Under the pieces are notes generated by a model. It ran no database searches. It had not been told where the DNA came from and saw only the letters and a program-made list of their open reading frames with translations. From Actinomycetales bacterium (GTDB taxonomy: Bacteria > Actinomycetota > Actinomycetes > Actinomycetales > CAWJMD01), in NCBI GenBank assembly GCA_047974565.1, contig JBKECN010000034.1:128760-192759 (forward strand): a stretch of 64,000 nt of DNA, read 5' to 3'. Shown here piece after piece: positions 5,277 to 17,102 of this stretch. Numbering within the stretch: the stretch's first letter is position 1; each line of letters begins with the position of its first letter. A program made the position numbers and the translations under genes.

Positions 5277-7151
<1,875 letters not shown>

Positions 7152-7368: not shown

Positions 7369-8841
7369 CTACCCGCGCGACAGCCCAGACGCCTCCTCTG
7401 ACACCGTCGCGAGTGCGGGTAGCCGGACGACGACCTGCGTCCCGGGATCGTCATCGTCGGCGACCCGCACCTGACCGCCGTGGTCGTGGACAACCTTGGC
7501 GACGATGGCCAGGCCCAGACCCGAACCCGGCATGCCCCTGGCCGCCGGTGCCCGGTAGAAGCGTTCGAAAAGGTGGTCCCGATCGCTGGGCGCGATGCCA
7601 GGCCCCTCATCCCGAACTCGCAGTTCCCCCTGCGGTGACAAGCTCACCTCGACCCGACCCCGAGGTGGACTCCATTTGATGGCGTTGTCCAGCAGGTTCG
7701 TGACCATGCGTTCCAGGTCGGTGCGCACGCCCGCGACGAGACAGGAGTCCAGGGCGGGGATCAACTGGACCCCTCGCACGCGGGCCCGTGGCGTGGCCCG
7801 GCGCAGGGCGCTCTCGACCACCTCGGCCAGGTCCACGGTCTGCACGAGGCCGGCGGGCGGCTCACCTCTAGCGAGCACGACGAGATCGTCGACCAGTGCA
7901 GTGAGCTCGCCCGTCTGGCATCGGACGTCGCTGAGCAGGTCGACCCGGTCCTGATCGGACATGTCCGGGTGCGCTGAGAGCACGTCGAGGTTCATCCGCA
8001 AACTGGCCAGGGGTGAGCGGAGTTCGTGCGAGGCGTCGTCGATCAGCCGCTGCCGGGCAGTTGCCGACTCGGCGAGCGAGCGCAGCAGCCCGTTGACGCT
8101 GTGCCCGACACGACCAAGCTCATCGTGCCGGTCGACCGTGATGGACGCGTGCAACGGATCTGATCCGGCGGCCTCGATCTCACGGGTCAACCTCGCCACC
8201 GGCGCCAAGACCACCCGACTGACCGCGAGCGCCAGCAACAGCGCCAGCACGGTCCCGGCGGCGCCGATGATCAGCGACATCGTGCGGAGTCGGTCCAACG
8301 CCGTGTCCAGGGGAGTCAGGTCCACGCCCACGACGACGGCACCAACGCCGCGAACGTGTTCGGCGAGCATCCGGTACCGGGCTCCACCCAAAGACACGTC
8401 GAAGAAGACCTCAGGCGTGGTTCCCGCCGCGACTGCACCGACCGACGCCGGTAGGGGATCTTCGATCGGGTCGCCATCGCCGACTACCAGCGAGAACGGC
8501 AGATCCTGCGCAACTGTGCCCTGCCCGGGGGCCGGTAGCCGCAACGGGCCACCGGCAGTAGGAAGTTCGCCATCCAGGTTCCCGGTCGCCGTTGTGGGTT
8601 CGTCAACCGGTGCCGTGGACTGCGACGACGGCGCCTCGTTCGAGCCGACGCCGTCGCTGCCGGTCAGGGTGTCCCGGCCGACGACGGAGTCCACCTGTGC
8701 GCGCAATCGGGTATCGAGTGCCGCGCGCTGACTCGACTCGAAGGCAGCCGCAACCGAGGCGAGAGTCAGCGCCACCGCAAGGATCACGCACCCCGTGACG
8801 GCGAGCGTGACCATGGTCCTCAGGCTCGCCCGGCCGACCAT
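7369..8841 (-). CDS. Sensor histidine kinase (TM-HAMP-HisKA-HATPase)
   Basis: H-box SHELRSPLASL, N-box LLDNAIKWSP and G-box GSGLGLAIV are present. ATG 8841 is preceded by GGTGAGG and follows the response regulator stop. The ORF track extends to 8904. Confidence 0.9.
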   Translation of the reverse strand: MVGRASLRTMVTLAVTGCVILAVALTLASVAAAFESSQRAALDTRLRAQVDSVVGRDTLTGSDGVGSNEAPSSQSTAPVDEPTTATGNLDGELPTAGGPLRLPAPGQGTVAQDLPFSLVVGDGDPIEDPLPASVGAVAAGTTPEVFFDVSLGGARYRMLAEHVRGVGAVVVGVDLTPLDTALDRLRTMSLIIGAAGTVLALLLALAVSRVVLAPVARLTREIEAAGSDPLHASITVDRHDELGRVGHSVNGLLRSLAESATARQRLIDDASHELRSPLASLRMNLDVLSAHPDMSDQDRVDLLSDVRCQTGELTALVDDLVVLARGEPPAGLVQTVDLAEVVESALRRATPRARVRGVQLIPALDSCLVAGVRTDLERMVTNLLDNAIKWSPPRGRVEVSLSPQGELRVRDEGPGIAPSDRDHLFERFYRAPAARGMPGSGLGLAIVAKVVHDHGGQVRVADDDDPGTQVVVRLPALATVSEEASGLSRG

Positions 8842-8863
8842 GGGGCGCCTCACCGGATTTCCA

Positions 8864-9526
8864 TCAGCGCAACACGAAGCCGACGCCGCGCACCGTGTGC
8901 ACAAGCCGGGAGCCGCCCTCGGCCTCCAACTTGCGGCGCAGTCCGCTGACGAAGACGTCCAGGGTGTTGGAACCGAACTCCCCCGGATGGCCCCAGACTC
9001 CCTCGTAGATCACCCCACGGGTCAGCACGATCCTCGGATTCTCCAAGAACATCCGCAGTAACTCGTACTCGCGAACCGTCAAGCTCAGTTGCCGCGCGCC
9101 GCGCCACACGGTGCGAGTCTGGGAGTCAAGCCTGAGATCGCCGAAGGTCAAGGCTGAACCCGCTCGGGAATCACGCCGGGTCAGAGCCTTCAGCCGAGCC
9201 AAGAGCTCCTCGAAGGCGAAGGGCTTGACGAGGTAGTCGTCGGCACCGGCGTCCAGACCCTCGACGCGGTCAGCGATGGCGTCGGCTGCGGTGAGCATGA
9301 GGATGGGCGTGCGGTCTGCCTGCCTGCGAACCGTCCGACACACAGTCAGGCCGTCGGGGTGGGGCATCCGCACGTCGAGCAGGACCGCATCCACTGAATC
9401 CTTGGCCAGAATCTGCAGCGCCTCGCTTCCGCCGGGCGCGGCAACCACCTCATGCCCGGCCAGGCGAAGACCCCGTTGCAAGGCGGCTCGGACGGCATCG
9501 TCATCGTCAACCACGAGCAAGCGCAT
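8864..9526 (-). CDS. OmpR/PhoB-family response regulator
   Basis: MRLLVVDDDD..., LDVRMPHPDG, ADDYLVKPF, with a winged-helix C-terminus LTVREYELLRMFLENPRIVLTR. The start is taken at MRLLVV (9526). Confidence 0.92.
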   Translation of the reverse strand: MRLLVVDDDDAVRAALQRGLRLAGHEVVAAPGGSEALQILAKDSVDAVLLDVRMPHPDGLTVCRTVRRQADRTPILMLTAADAIADRVEGLDAGADDYLVKPFAFEELLARLKALTRRDSRAGSALTFGDLRLDSQTRTVWRGARQLSLTVREYELLRMFLENPRIVLTRGVIYEGVWGHPGEFGSNTLDVFVSGLRRKLEAEGGSRLVHTVRGVGFVLR

Positions 9527-9642
9527 GGAGTCTCCCCACTGGATCCATACCAACACGGTTAATTGGGATAAAATGCACTGTACTGGGACGTCGCCTCCCT
9601 GCGCGGCGGCTACCCGAGCATTGCCGCAGGGCGGGCCAGCCC

Positions 9643-10797
9643 TCAGGAGCGAAGAGCCAATGCCGGCTCCAGGCGCGCCGCACGAATCGCGGGGTAGCTG
9701 CCTGCCAGCAGGCAGACCATCAGCGAGATCGCCAGTGTCACAGTCGCTGTGGCCGGGTCGATGCTCAACGACCAGCCGTTTCGGGCTGCCGCCACGGCGA
9801 CTGCGGCAACTCCGATGCCGACCCCTGCCAGTGATCCGCCGGTGCCTACCAAGAACGCCTGCAACAGGAACTGTCCGGCAATAGTGGTACGACGATGCCC
9901 TAATGCCCTGCGCAGCCCGATCTCTGCCGTGCGTTGGATCACCGAGATCGTCATGACATTGGCGATTCCCACGCCACCGATGATCATGGCCAGAGCCCCC
10001 ATGCTGATGATCACCAACTGCATTGTCGTGTCCACCTCCGCGCGCGCGGCCAGAAGGCCGGTCGGGATGCTGACGGAAACCGGAGATCCGTACCCATAGG
10101 TGATGGCCAGGTCGAGAGATGCCGACAGCGACTGCGCTGCGCCGGGTTCGGTCCGCACAATGAGGAAAGTGGGTGCCGGATCGGGATCGAAGACGGCTCC
10201 GGCGTCTCGGGTGACCAGCACCGCAGTGTCAAGGACCGGCAGCTGCCCCACCGGCCGGAGCACTCCGACCACGGCAAAGGGCTTGCCTCCCACCAGGACG
10301 GATCGGACCTCCCAGTCGAGGATTCCCAGCCGACGAGCCGATTCGGCTCCGAGTACGACCGATCTCAAGGACGCGTCGTCCTCGGTGAGAAAGCGTCCCC
10401 AGGCCAGCGAGGCGGCACCCACCTTCATCATCTCCTGGTCGGTGCTCACCACCTGAAGAGATCTGACATCCAGATTCTGGTCAACTTCGCCAGATCTGGC
10501 GACGCTGACCTTCGACAGCACTGTGAGCGGAGCGGCACTGACCACTCCTGGCTGAGCCCGGGCGCGGGCGGCAGCCTCCACGGGGAGCCTTTGCGTGCTG
10601 TCGTTACCACCCGAGCTGACCCACATCAGGTCCGCTCCGAGATCGTTCAAGGCTGTCTGCAGCTGTGCGGTGGCAGACGTGGACAGGCCCAGGGCAGCGA
10701 TGACAGCCGCAACTCCAAGCGCTGGACCCAGACTCAACAGGAGGGCTCGAACCGGCCGGGCTCGCATATCCGCAAGCGCGGTTCTGATCAGGTCCAT
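9643..10797 (-). CDS. ABC transporter permease, FtsX/MacB type
   Basis: N-terminal TM segment, large extracytoplasmic domain and C-terminal FtsX-like 3-TM bundle (RTAEIGLRRALGHRR). Its start overlaps the ATPase stop. Confidence 0.85.
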   Translation of the reverse strand: MDLIRTALADMRARPVRALLLSLGPALGVAAVIAALGLSTSATAQLQTALNDLGADLMWVSSGGNDSTQRLPVEAAARARAQPGVVSAAPLTVLSKVSVARSGEVDQNLDVRSLQVVSTDQEMMKVGAASLAWGRFLTEDDASLRSVVLGAESARRLGILDWEVRSVLVGGKPFAVVGVLRPVGQLPVLDTAVLVTRDAGAVFDPDPAPTFLIVRTEPGAAQSLSASLDLAITYGYGSPVSVSIPTGLLAARAEVDTTMQLVIISMGALAMIIGGVGIANVMTISVIQRTAEIGLRRALGHRRTTIAGQFLLQAFLVGTGGSLAGVGIGVAAVAVAAARNGWSLSIDPATATVTLAISLMVCLLAGSYPAIRAARLEPALALRS

Positions 10798-11519
10798 GGG
10801 CGAGGGCTCCCGTCCTGGCGGCTCGGCGTCATCGGCTGCGAAGACGCGCGAGAGTCGTTGATCACGAGCCCGTCCCGGATCTCGATCCGCCTATCTGCTC
10901 TGGCGGCCAACACCGGGTCGTGGGTGACCAGGATGAGTGTGCGGCGTGGGTCGAGAAAGCGCTCCAATAGATCGATGACGACCGTGGCGCTTGCCGTGTC
11001 GAGGTTCCCGGTGGGTTCGTCGGCCAGCAACAGGGGTGGGTCGGTGACCAACGCCCGCGCGATGGCCACTCGTTGCTGCTCTCCACCCGACAGTTGGGCG
11101 GGCCGATGCTTCATCCGGTGCCCCAGGCCCACTCGCTCCAGCACCTGTGCGGCCAGTTCTCGGCGTCCGCGTGAGGTGATGCCGCGATAGAGCAGGGCGA
11201 GTTCGACGTTGCCGAGCGCGGTCAGTTGATCCAGAAGATGGAACTGCTGAAAGACGAAGCCGATGCAGCGCCCGCGCAGCCGAGTTCGGACAGCGTCACC
11301 CTCGGCCCGCTGACCAGCTATCAGGACGGTCCCGGAGGTGGCCTGATCCAGACAGCCCAGCAAGCCGAGCAGAGTTGACTTGCCCGAACCCGAAGGTCCG
11401 GTGATGGCTACGTACTCCCCCGCCCCGATGGTGAGACTGACGTGCTGGATGGCGGTCACCAATGTCCCGTAACTGCGACTGACGTCGTGCAACTCGACGA
11501 CATTCGTGGCGCCCGTCAT
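10788..11519 (-). CDS. ABC transporter ATP-binding protein (MacB/LolD-like)
   Basis: Walker [12 protein letters not shown], signature [15 protein letters not shown], Walker [17 protein letters not shown] overlap with the upstream gene. Confidence 0.93.
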
Positions 11520-12610
11520 CCCTTGTCTCCCAGCACAACCGTCTGCCCCTCGGCGACCCCTTCTGTCACCTGGACAAGAGCCCCTGACGCTATCCCCAGG
11601 GTCACCGGGACCACCTGGATCTGCTCCTGGTGCAGGAGCCGCACCGCAGGCGCGCCGTCGTTGTCGACGATCGCCACCGCGGGCACCGCCAGGGCATCGG
11701 GAGCCTCGTGCAGGATGATGGTCACCCGGACGTCGCTGCCCTCCAGACCCTCGCCAGGATCCCCGTCAACCGCGATTCTGACCGGGTACTTGCCCGGCGA
11801 GGAATCCTGGGTGGCCGTGCTTGCACCGGAGTCGCCGCCGCCCCCGCCGGACGCCTGCGCCGCCGTGGCCTGCGGAGTGCTGGACACTTCTGCCACCGTG
11901 CCCTGCCGTTCCTGCCCGGTGGACGAGAACTGGAGTTCAGCGGGCTGGCCCACCTGAACCTGCTGTCGGTCGCTGACCTCCAGGGTCAGGCTCACGCTCT
12001 GCAGTTGCGCGCTGGTATCGAATGCCTTCGTACCCTGGCCGACGAAGTCTCCGACCGAGATCGAGACCTCAGCGATGCGCGAAGGCAGGTCCAAGACGAT
12101 CGCATAGGCGGAACGAAAGCTGCCGTCTTCGTTGAGGTTCCTGCGCTTCTGCCACTTCTTGACCACGGCTTCGACCCGCGCGGTGTAGGTATCCCCGTCT
12201 TGGACGCGGTAGCCCACGTCTCGCAGGAACTGGATCACCTGCGCGACGTCCGGGCCCTTGTCATCTCTTACCAGATCACGCCACAGTGGCGTGTCGCCTG
12301 CCATCGCGTAGACCGGTTGGTTGTCGATGCGGAAGAGCTCGTCCGCCTGACCGATGGTGTCCCCCGGGGCTATCGACACCTGGGTGATGCGCCCACCGCC
12401 GCTGAGGGAGTACCCACTCCGTTGCCCGTATTCGAGGGTTCCCCGGGTCACCAGCGTCTGCCGAAGGGTCTGCTTCGTCACGGCAGCCGTCACATAACTC
12501 GGGGTGGTGGGTTCGGCAGCACTCAGGCTGCCCCCTCGTACTGCGTAGCCGCCCGCGGCCAGTCCCGCGCCAAGCACCAGGGCGATCACGATGAGCCCGG
12601 CGCGTCGCAC
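11516..12610 (-). CDS. Periplasmic adaptor (HlyD/MacA-like) with peptidoglycan-binding insert
   Basis: N-terminal TM segment. PG_binding-like block DVAQVIQFLRDVGYRV...VKKWQKRRNL. Beta-barrel-like C-terminus. Translationally coupled to the ATPase. Confidence 0.75.
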   Translation of the reverse strand: MRRAGLIVIALVLGAGLAAGGYAVRGGSLSAAEPTTPSYVTAAVTKQTLRQTLVTRGTLEYGQRSGYSLSGGGRITQVSIAPGDTIGQADELFRIDNQPVYAMAGDTPLWRDLVRDDKGPDVAQVIQFLRDVGYRVQDGDTYTARVEAVVKKWQKRRNLNEDGSFRSAYAIVLDLPSRIAEVSISVGDFVGQGTKAFDTSAQLQSVSLTLEVSDRQQVQVGQPAELQFSSTGQERQGTVAEVSSTPQATAAQASGGGGGDSGASTATQDSSPGKYPVRIAVDGDPGEGLEGSDVRVTIILHEAPDALAVPAVAIVDNDGAPAVRLLHQEQIQVVPVTLGIASGALVQVTEGVAEGQTVVLGDKG

Positions 12611-12616
12611 GGGGCT

Positions 12617-13213
12617 TCACTGACCAATCGTCGATGGCTCCGGCAGGTTCTCGTGGTCGCCCACGTCCATGCCGGAGGTCGCCGAGCATGATCGAAAGTC
12701 GCGGTTGAAGGCGGCGGTGCGGGCGTCGTCGTCGAACGTCGGCATATCCGGTGGGACGATCTGATCGCCCTCACGATGAGCGTCCCCGACCTGCCATCCC
12801 CGATCCCTCAAACACGTGATCAGCGAGTTCATCGCCACCTCGACCGAGTCCGACGACACGGTCGTGGGTTGGTCCCACCCTTGGTCGAGTCCACTGGAGG
12901 AGGCGCACCGCTGAGCGGCCGCCAAGAAGTCCGGGTCCTTGAAGACGGGGTCCTGTTCTGGGTCACCCGCCGTCCCGTCAGCCACCTCCGCAAATCCGGC
13001 AGCGCGCAAGCAGTCGTCATACTTCGTCTGGGCCTGGCGAGTAACGGCAGTCGCCTCACTCGAGGACGCCGCCCCGGCATTCGCGCTCGTCGCGCACCCA
13101 GACAGCGCCACCAGCCCGCCCAGCGAGAGGGCCATCGCAGACGCCCGCAGTCCCCGGGCTGTGGCGTTCGCAGGTGACCTGGGGCCGTGGCGGTGGGTTC
13201 CTGGTGCTCTCAT
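12617..13213 (-). CDS. Putative lipoprotein, unknown function
   Basis: Lipobox LVALSGC follows a hydrophobic segment. It is first in the minus-strand string with the ABC genes. The start may be the internal MALSLGG (13135). Confidence 0.55.
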   Translation of the reverse strand: MRAPGTHRHGPRSPANATARGLRASAMALSLGGLVALSGCATSANAGAASSSEATAVTRQAQTKYDDCLRAAGFAEVADGTAGDPEQDPVFKDPDFLAAAQRCASSSGLDQGWDQPTTVSSDSVEVAMNSLITCLRDRGWQVGDAHREGDQIVPPDMPTFDDDARTAAFNRDFRSCSATSGMDVGDHENLPEPSTIGQ

Positions 13214-13268: not shown

Positions 13269-15017
13269 GTGAGAATGCCGGAGACCCAAGGAGATGGTGA
13301 GGTAAGGCGAGGGGATCTGCCGGGTTGCCGAGCCTCTTGGCCCTGGACGCCTCCCGAGGCTGCCGATGTCAGTGGGTTGGTGTCTCATGGGGTCATGCTC
13401 ATCAATGTTCAGACCGCGTTGTCATTTGCAGCGACAGGTCCACGCTCGCGCAGGTCAGCCGGGTCAGCCAGGTCAGCCGGGTCAGCCAGGTCAGCCAGGA
13501 CGCCTGCGGCGGGGGCCTGCATCGTCCCGCCCTATCTCCTCGAGCGGCTGGCTGCCACCGGGGGGCCCACCGGTGACGCCGCCCAACGCACCCTCACCAG
13601 TGACGTGCAACGTCGCCAGGAGTGGGCCCGGCACACCACCCGGGCGCTGCGACCCGCTCCGGATGGTGGGCCGGCAAGGTCGTCGGCGCGTGATGCGGCT
13701 GCCACGGCGTCGGTGCACCGGACGGTGTGTGACGCCCGCGGCACCCAGCGCCTGCCGGGAGACCGGGTCCGCACGGAGGGCGATCCACCCGGGCAGGACG
13801 TGGCGGTCAATGAGGCGTATGACGGGCTCGGCGCCACCTTCGATCTGTTCTGGCAGGCCTTCGGACGCAACTCCCTCGATGGCAAGGGTCTGGGCTTGCT
13901 GGCAACCGTCCATTACGGTCGTCAATACCAGAATGCGTTCTGGGACGGCGAGCAGATGGTCTTCGGCGATGGTGACGGAGAGATCTTCGGGCGCTTCACC
14001 GCCAGCCTCGACGTGATCGGTCACGAACTCACCCACGGCGTCACCGAGCACACCGCCGGGCTGATGTATCGGGGCCAGTCAGGTGCCCTCAACGAATCGA
14101 TGTCCGACGTCTTCGGGGTGCTGGTCACCCAGCACCTGCTGGGCCAGGACGCAGACGAGGCCGCCTGGCTGATCGGTGCCGATCTGCTCACCTCGCGGGT
14201 ACGTGGCCGCGCCCTGCGCGACATGATGCACCCGGGCACCGCCTACGACGACCCAGTCCTGGGCAAGGATCCGCAGCCCGGGCACATGCGCGACTTCGTC
14301 GAGACCACCGACGACAACGGCGGCGTGCACATCAACTCGGGTATCCCCAACCGCGCCTTCGCGCTGGCCGCCGTGGCGATCGGCGGCCGGGCCTGGGAGA
14401 AGGCCGGGCAGGTCTGGTACGACGCATTGACCGGTGACGGCATCCGAGCGGACTGCGATTTCGCCACGTTCGCCGGCCTCACCGTGGTGCGGGCTGAAGC
14501 GAGGTTCGGCGCGGACGACTCCACGACGCGGGCCATCCGCCAGGCCTGGCAGGACGTGGGGGTGCTTGTCGAGGCGGCCAGCACAGCTGACCCGGCAGGG
14601 ATAGACATCCGGACGTCGGCCGTCGACCAGCCGCCGGATTCGTCCAGCGCAGCGCCGGCCACCCCGCCGGCCACCGAGGTGCCGCCGTCCTTCGTCACCG
14701 CCTCCGGTGTCGCCGTGCCCGCCGACGCCGAGGTCGACGTGCGCAGGACGGGTGGATTCGCCGGTCTGACCCGGCACGGCCGGGTTCGCCTCGACGACGT
14801 CCCGACACCGGAAGCTCATCGGTGGGCATCCCTGCTCACCGACCCCACCGTGCTGAGCCCCGGCCCGGTGGGCACGAGGGTCGCCGACGGGTACACCTAC
14901 CACCTGACCTGTGCCGCCCTCGCTGTGGACACCTCACTGGTACAGGAGCATGCCAGCCAGGAGCAACAGCGCCTGTTGGACGATTGTGTCGAACGGCATC
15001 CGCACACGCCCGGATGA
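13269..15017 (+). CDS. M4 (thermolysin-family, protealysin-like) metalloprotease with emfourin-like C-terminal extension
   Basis: HEXXH in VIGHELTHGV. Third zinc ligand block GALNESMSDVFG. Propeptide PPL motif CIVPPYLLERL. No signal peptide is seen. The C-terminal ~95 aa (VDVRRTGGFAGLTRHG...) lie beyond a Pro/Ala/Ser linker. Alternative start ATG 13395. Confidence 0.85.
   Translation: MRMPETQGDGEVRRGDLPGCRASWPWTPPEAADVSGLVSHGVMLINVQTALSFAATGPRSRRSAGSARSAGSARSARTPAAGACIVPPYLLERLAATGGPTGDAAQRTLTSDVQRRQEWARHTTRALRPAPDGGPARSSARDAAATASVHRTVCDARGTQRLPGDRVRTEGDPPGQDVAVNEAYDGLGATFDLFWQAFGRNSLDGKGLGLLATVHYGRQYQNAFWDGEQMVFGDGDGEIFGRFTASLDVIGHELTHGVTEHTAGLMYRGQSGALNESMSDVFGVLVTQHLLGQDADEAAWLIGADLLTSRVRGRALRDMMHPGTAYDDPVLGKDPQPGHMRDFVETTDDNGGVHINSGIPNRAFALAAVAIGGRAWEKAGQVWYDALTGDGIRADCDFATFAGLTVVRAEARFGADDSTTRAIRQAWQDVGVLVEAASTADPAGIDIRTSAVDQPPDSSSAAPATPPATEVPPSFVTASGVAVPADAEVDVRRTGGFAGLTRHGRVRLDDVPTPEAHRWASLLTDPTVLSPGPVGTRVADGYTYHLTCAALAVDTSLVQEHASQEQQRLLDDCVERHPHTPG
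13453..13497 (+). repeat. 9-bp tandem repeat x5 (GGTCAGCCR) inside the protease N-terminal region
   Basis: Read directly from the sequence. It encodes SAGSARSAGSARSAR and is in frame (unit is a multiple of 3). Confidence 0.9.
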
Positions 15018-15136
15018 GCCTGGCCCGGTCCCAGCAGGGTGCCGGCCCAGCGGGCGGCATGGACGTCAGGCGTCGACATCGCGCCCGGGTCAAGTCCCGT
15101 CACTGCCCGGGGGACCTCCCGCCACCGGCCGAAGGC

Positions 15137-17102
<1,966 letters not shown>

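Follow-up and report, generated by a model that had tools for sequence, protein, structure and literature searches.

A stretch of 64,000 nucleotides from the genome of an Actinomycetales bacterium (assembly GCA_047974565.1, contig JBKECN010000034.1, positions 128,760 to 192,759 of the forward strand; hereafter the window) encodes, in one uninterrupted reading frame, a protealysin-like protease (PLP) of the M4 family, a low-complexity linker and a C-terminal inhibitor domain of the emfourin (M4in) type (Table 1). We regard the gene as real and, on the basis of its sequence and of structure models, read its product with a probability of roughly 0.6 as a PLP-type M4 precursor that would carry two successive locks, an N-terminal propeptide followed by the tethered emfourin. 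As an architecture the fusion is not new: it is abundant and annotated in public databases, with hundreds of carriers among related actinobacteria from soil; the window gene is a divergent member of this group and no new kind of system.

A protease and an inhibitor in one reading frame

The first-pass annotation, made from the nucleotide letters and their open reading frames (ORFs), had proposed a protealysin-like M4 protease with the motifs HELTH and NESMSD, a PPL propeptide motif, a linker of the Pro/Ala/Ser/Thr type at about 14560-14735 and an emfourin-like C-terminal domain. All these parts were recovered, with a caveat on the score of the propeptide, and the linker was located at 14565-14732, where it is rich in A, P, S, V and T.

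The protease half has hmmscan matches above the Pfam cut-offs to Peptidase_M4 (residues 177-260, E 3.4e-29) and Peptidase_M4_C (residues 263-432, E 2.8e-49). Among solved structures its best match is the protealysin precursor 2vqx_A (E 8.3e-119, residues 116-432), other M4 enzymes being matched at E 5e-53 or weaker, and comparison of the AlphaFold model with 2VQX by Foldseek gave E 3.6e-39, a template modelling (TM) score of 0.86 and 53% identity. The zinc and catalytic residues of the HExxH, NExxSD and GGVH motifs are invariant across 116 aligned fused homologues. Ahead of the catalytic domains, the PPL motif CIVPPYLL occupies residues 84-91, and its residues I85, P87, P88, Y89 and L91 are nearly invariant among the aligned homologues. 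As judged from a gap-free alignment to the protealysin precursor 2vqx_A, the propeptide probably extends to about residue 140. The Pfam PLN_propep model matches residues 85-109 by hmmscan at 13.5 bits, under its cut-off of 28.1, and no long propeptide of the FTP/PepSY type was found by Pfam hmmscan of the whole product. Simple hydropathy inspection, subject to an uncertain start codon, revealed no hydrophobic core resembling that of a signal peptide (maximum 12-residue Kyte-Doolittle mean 1.6-1.75, no charged n-region).

The inhibitor half begins with VDVRRTGGFAG (residues 489-499) and matches the Pfam family Emfourin (PF20242) over residues 491-571 and model positions 1-88 of 91, with 43.8 bits against a gathering score of 27 (hmmscan, E 3.5e-11); the match of the same ORF reached 49 bits in a six-frame search of the genome. 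The first-pass annotation had named the lack of a significant Emfourin match as a refutation, and the search thus does not refute it. Residues R493, G495-G496, G499, W519, D540, Y544 and L569, which are invariant or nearly so in 116 fused homologues and in free emfourins, are kept in the window. A profile of 18 domains matches the nuclear magnetic resonance entry of emfourin, 6zyg_A, weakly, at E 0.076, with the invariant Asp aligned to Asp64. When the C-terminal 100 aa were searched against PDB as a single sequence, nothing meaningful was returned, and 6zyg was not among the Foldseek matches of the whole model. The genome contains one M4_C match and one Emfourin match, both of them in this ORF, so that the attached protease is the only plausible target of the domain. 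Judged from these sequence features, both halves look functional.

Several lines of evidence bear on whether the single frame is genuine. Third codon positions of the same frame have a G+C content (GC3) of 0.84 across the protease, 0.86 across the linker and 0.78 across the inhibitor domain; GC3 holds at 0.83-0.90 through the linker, within which both alternative frames run into stops. An independently assembled Logan contig from public run SRR30067260 matches window positions 13817-16638 with 100% identity and no gaps and carries the same uninterrupted 399-aa C-terminal frame; since it may come from the same reads as the genome, it excludes assembler error, not sequencing error. In a 5.8-billion-cluster protein set, the 120 best homologues all combine the three domains PF01447, PF02868 and PF20242 in one protein of 428-556 aa. 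These fused relatives are named 'protealysin inhibitor emfourin' or 'neutral metalloproteinase' in NCBI and UniRef, the first of these names, which NCBI gives to many, hiding the protease. The earlier supposition that such a fusion was unrecorded is not borne out by these entries.

It is very improbable that an error of sequencing or of assembly within the G+C-rich linker joined what are really adjacent protease and emfourin genes. Such a merger would require a lost stop codon or two compensating indels, and the second assembly, made from the public run, agrees with the region at every base. Coding-type GC3 runs on in frame through a linker whose other two frames hold stops, its composition and VPxxDAx end are typical of more than 100 fused homologues, and the window protease groups with the fused clade in the tree described below. 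What speaks for an artefact is that a same-genus relative (G002) carries two genes overlapping by ATGA at the syntenic locus, and that an exact look-up in a collection of 15 billion proteins did not find the product under any (6 of 6) of its candidate starts. The product of the neighbouring asd gene is present in that collection, with entries from NCBI as well as Logan; the fusion gene may be annotated differently in the public record, as a pseudogene call or with another start.

The ORF was first described as running from 13269 to 15017 in one frame. The frame stands as described, whereas the start coordinate does not: ATG 13395 is probably the real start rather than GTG 13269, because GC3 is 0.60 over the first 126 nt (13269-13394), unlike coding sequence, and because the aligned homologues start close to the PPL motif, 1-11 residues ahead of it (median 11). 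Inspection of the sequence between 13419 and the PPL motif found no in-frame ATG, GTG or TTG. Even with the ATG start an N-terminal extension of about 41 aa precedes the motif, and the aligned homologues have no such extension. Residues 1-32 of the 540-aa form have a predicted local distance difference test (pLDDT) value below 50 in AlphaFold, the extension being predicted to be disordered. The extension, with its 9-bp repeat, sits upstream of protealysin's first autoprocessing position; it may be clipped off early, and the repeat may be neutral.

Table 1. Features of the fused gene in the window, and the split counterpart in a genome of the same genus.
Feature	Position	Strand	Description	Basis
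Longest ORF	13269..15017	+	582 aa from GTG 13269; stop codon 15015-15017; protease, linker and inhibitor in one frame	ORF listing, Pfam
Probable true start	13395..13397	+	ATG, Met43 of the long ORF; 540-aa product	inferred
In-frame 9-bp repeat	13453..13497	+	GGTCAGCCR x5, giving SAG/SAR units; within the N-terminal extension	sequence, alignment
PPL propeptide motif	13518..13541	+	CIVPPYLL, residues 84-91; propeptide probably to about residue 140 (nt ~13688)	motif position
M4 catalytic domains	13797..14564	+	Peptidase_M4 and Peptidase_M4_C	Pfam, 2vqx_A
HELTH	14022-14036	+	residues 252-256	motif
NESMSD	14091-14108	+	residues 275-280	motif
GGVHINSG	14319-14342	+		motif
Low-complexity linker	14565..14732	+	56 aa, residues 433-488, LVEAASTADPAG...SFVTASGVAVPADAE	domain boundaries
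Emfourin (M4in-type) inhibitor domain	14733..15014	+	residues 489-582	Pfam PF20242, invariant residues
Asp540 codon	14886-14888	+	invariant Asp of the PDxFxY loop	
Split pair of G002, locus L004	G002:C1:1705485-1708733		ATGA overlap at nt 1444-1447	same-genus genome

Proposed mode of inhibition

The first-pass annotation took the fusion to imply autoinhibition relieved by cleavage of the linker. Autoinhibition in cis is our best reading of the fusion too, with indirect support from a predicted TM score (pTM) of 0.85 and from the conserved inhibitor residues. The precursor would be made in the cytoplasm, with no signal peptide, and its N-terminal PPL propeptide would block the active site, as in protealysin. 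Free emfourin binds the active-site region of protealysin 1:1 (PMC9505478). After removal of the propeptide, the tethered emfourin would likewise bind the active-site region of the same molecule; a prematurely matured enzyme would therefore be held inactive, at a fixed 1:1 ratio. Bozin et al. are said to have found, in J Biol Chem in 2023, that the emfourin Asp coordinates the catalytic zinc and that a hydrophobic loop also engages the protease. By analogy with the free inhibitor, the invariant Asp of the window domain would be directed toward the zinc and its hydrophobic GGFAG loop would lie in the substrate pockets. Activity would then need a cut in the tether and the loss or degradation of the inhibitor, perhaps once the protein has left the cell. 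That inhibition acts in cis, in which order these events occur and what triggers activation are points that we infer for the window protein.

AlphaFold gave a pTM of 0.69 for the 540 aa with the propeptide and of 0.85 for the 442 aa without it. The latter value appears to exceed what would be expected for a freely placed 90-aa domain on a disordered linker of about 45 aa beside a core of about 300 residues. It suggests that the inhibitor packs on the protease as an intramolecular complex, at the active site or elsewhere. The inhibitor domain was modelled with a pLDDT of 91-96 except in two loops, GGFAG (about 80) and that of Asp540 (about 66).

Four points weigh against inhibition in cis by a two-lock precursor. 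The Asp540 loop stays at a pLDDT of about 66 in both models; the emfourin domain of the window is divergent, its best relatives sharing 36-46% identity; the product is missing from the protein collection, as noted above; and few of the hydrophobic residues favoured by PLPs at P1' and P2' occur in the linkers of the clade, which thus make no obvious provision for self-cleavage.

In an improbable alternative, the C-terminal domain would be a relic of emfourin that has lost its inhibitory activity and has another role, such as helping the protein to fold, tagging it for localisation or secretion, or recognising substrates. Against PF20242 the window domain reaches 44-49 bits, whereas most relatives in the order score higher (up to 85 bits); its C-terminal helix differs from the consensus of the clade, and the Asp loop is modelled with low confidence. 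However, the window domain keeps every column (R, GG, G, W, D, Y, L) that is invariant across emfourins of both the free and the fused type, the domain folds confidently in the models and no other Pfam family matches it.

The composition of the linker is relevant to how the tether could be released. The first 40 or so residues of the window linker are predicted to be disordered, and the last 18 or so to be structured, with two short strands, SFV and AVP (pLDDT, DSSP). In 118 fused homologues the linkers measure 18-68 aa (median 38), are rich in G, A, P, S, D, T and E, and are strongly depleted in F, I, L and V. A semi-conserved VPxxDAx segment lies directly ahead of the inhibitor domain in these homologues, and the window linker ends in VAVPADAE. 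In the window the segment (residues 481-488, nt 14709-14732) is a predicted ordered strand with a pLDDT of about 90; the free emfourins of Streptomyces begin two residues before the domain and do not have it. PLPs prefer to cleave after a small residue at P1 and before hydrophobic residues at P1' and P2' (PMC6778150), and the depletion of the clade linkers in F, I, L and V argues against a built-in self-cleavage. The window linker is itself unusually rich in V, I and F and holds sites of the S|FV and G|VA type that fit this preference.

These sites would suit a polyprotein, in which the fusion serves strict 1:1 synthesis, the linker is soon cut by the enzyme itself or by housekeeping proteases, and inhibition then takes place in trans, as with the products of an operon, no special autoinhibited state being involved. 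Inside single genera, fused and split forms change into one another with few other differences (G002 and the window; L002 and L005; see below), which suggests near-equivalent function, and the nested split forms have 4-nt stop/start overlaps that also enforce coupled synthesis. Nevertheless, we consider this explanation, the main rival, rather unlikely, as the depletion across the 118 linkers goes against selection for self-cleavage and the model without the propeptide has a high pTM, suggestive of a complex within one molecule.

Autoinhibition in cis could take a stricter form, that of a doubly locked zymogen which becomes active only after two separate proteolytic events and the physical loss of the inhibitor; we give this form somewhat less than an even chance. 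Should it apply, the repeated switches between fused and ATGA-split states within genera would represent an evolutionary tuning of the tightness of the leash. To our knowledge, a doubly locked mechanism has been demonstrated for no M4 protease.

Distribution and evolution of fused and split forms

In order to compare fused and separate forms, one genome per species was scanned, the 80 loci most like the window protein were kept, and all loci fetched were classified with hidden Markov models (HMMs) for both halves. The fused form is spread over several actinobacterial families, in the genera Knoellia, Janibacter, Phycicoccus, Propionicimonas and Luteococcus as well as in several metagenome-assembled genomes, and the two-gene form occurs in Streptomyces, Nocardia, Wenjunlia and Rathayibacter. 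The proteases of the Streptomyces pairs end 3-10 residues past the VGV motif, and the emfourins start two residues before their domain, with a spacer of mostly 21 nt. Most split pairs retrieved (L020, L022, L026-L029 and about 40 other Streptomyces and Nocardia loci) have 21 nt from stop to ATG and stay in the same frame, in a sample biased toward such pairs by their better tblastn scores. Loss of a single stop codon in these pairs would give a fusion with a linker of about 10 aa.

In the order to which the window belongs, 93 of 401 sampled genomes have an Emfourin match, and about one third of the matches lie in open frames of at least 430 aa, an imprecise proxy for fusion (locus L006, among such frames, proved split). 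Within the family of the window, emfourin was detected only in the window genome and in one congener (1 of the 10 other genomes searched). Residues 485-582 had no match at E <= 0.001 in the 5.8-billion protein set, and a search of a representative library gave 31 matches of mixed lengths, uninformative on abundance.

The protease domains were placed in an unrooted tree (IQ-TREE, LG+C20 with posterior mean site frequencies (PMSF), quick search). A clade with a Shimodaira-Hasegawa-like approximate likelihood ratio test (SH-aLRT) support of 95 gathers 37 rows, 34 of them fused, including the window protein, and 3 split; the position of this protein inside the clade is left open by the tree. The Streptomyces pairs form a separate clade (SH-aLRT 99). 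Three split rows are nested among the fusions: L002, L006 and G002, the last from the genus of the window. L002 has L005 as its sister (SH-aLRT 96). The nested split rows have a 4-nt overlap of stop and start (ATGA in G002, GTGA in L002 and L006) and an inhibitor with a linker-like, G/A/P/S-rich N-terminal extension of 10-16 residues, both of which are absent from the Streptomyces type. This pattern suggests, as the simplest reading, one old fusion followed by several secondary splits, a direction that we can only infer because the tree is unrooted.

Synteny places the split pair of G002 and the fused gene at the same locus. The downstream asd genes share 82% identity and a conserved upstream gene 87%, and the proteases are about 65% identical by tblastx and 57% by protein alignment. 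Fused and split states therefore differ within one genus at one locus. The DNA of the two linkers was too diverged for an alignment that would locate the separating frameshift. Gene replacement at the G002 locus was considered and set aside: FastTree had put the G002 protease outside the fused clade, and IQ-TREE under the site-heterogeneous model placed it inside, with support.

A gammaproteobacterial protealysin-like protease, from Stutzerimonas azotifigens (L021, NZ_JAAMRF010000002.1), falls beside the fused clade on a long branch (SH-aLRT 80), a placement that may reflect horizontal transfer or long-branch attraction. No emfourin was detected at this locus by an HMM built from the actinobacterial profile.

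Comparison with known systems and genomic setting

One close counterpart is a two-gene one. In Serratia proteamaculans, pln-m4in is a bicistronic protealysin-emfourin operon (PMC9505478), and the comparison with separate protease and emfourin genes made in the first-pass annotation is sustained by this operon and by the split forms of Streptomyces and of the same-genus relative. The window gene and the operon share the same families (an M4 protease of the PLP type that carries a short PPL propeptide, and an emfourin), the order protease then inhibitor, and presumably the same logic, that of a protease held in check by a co-produced 1:1 inhibitor. The operon protease has no signal peptide, and the window protein may likewise lack one. 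They differ in that a 56-aa linker stands in the window in place of stop, spacer and start, so that the inhibitor is covalently tethered; in that the window domain is distant from Serratia emfourin, as reflected in the weak profile match to 6zyg_A (E 0.076); and in the host, an uncultured actinomycete lineage and not an enterobacterium.

A second close counterpart is the group of fused relatives, which occur in Dermatophilaceae/Intrasporangiaceae and Propionibacteriales (e.g. Humibacillus and Terrabacter, in addition to genera named above). The window protein shares with them the three Pfam domains, the low-complexity linker, the VPxxDAx segment, the invariant residues and the same supported clade. 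It is, however, only 50-59% identical to them overall; its linker is near the long end of their range and, unlike most of theirs, richer in V, I and F; and the N-terminal extension with its 9-bp repeat is peculiar to it. The Streptomyces and Nocardia pairs resemble the window gene in having a homologous protease (46-60% identity) with an emfourin directly after it on the same strand, yet they are two genes and form a separate clade.

A more general analogy is with the intramolecular propeptides of PLPs (PMC6778150) and with the FTP/PepSY propeptides of thermolysin-like enzymes, in which an attached segment blocks the active site of its own protein until it is removed; the tethered emfourin may act in a comparable way. 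Unlike such propeptides, emfourin lies at the C-terminus, binds tightly and inhibits autonomously, occurring elsewhere as a free-standing protein, and is present in addition to an N-terminal propeptide. A full-text search of the literature found no mention of a protease-emfourin fusion, although the 2021 emfourin survey in Int J Biol Macromol may cover it.

PLPs have been studied as invasion factors and possibly as factors of interbacterial competition, and a family of inhibitors recognised only recently has emfourin as its prototype (PMC9505478). The fusion offers a simple system for asking how PLPs escape an inhibitor of the picomolar class, and it bears on why some lineages tether the inhibitor and others use a coupled two-gene operon. 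A natural single-chain complex would also suit crystallography of the engagement between emfourin and the active site. The copy in the window is a divergent addition from an actinomycete lineage that has been poorly sampled, and a split form from the same genus is available for direct comparison.

In its genomic setting the fused gene appears to stand alone, being divergent from an upstream block (7369-13213) and convergent with asd downstream; a scan for promoter and terminator consensus sequences around it found none. The upstream block encodes a lipoprotein, a MacB-type ABC exporter, an adaptor and a two-component system. A functional link of the protease to this exporter and two-component module was considered and rejected, because the block is absent in G002 while the protease locus is kept. 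At the syntenic G002 site (L091, G002:C1:1698000-1714000) the protease gene comes almost immediately after the counterpart of window positions 5310-7064 (87% identity), the missing 5.8-kb block representing an insertion or deletion polymorphism. The nearest named relatives of the downstream asd gene are in Thalassiella and Angustibacter, at 77% identity.

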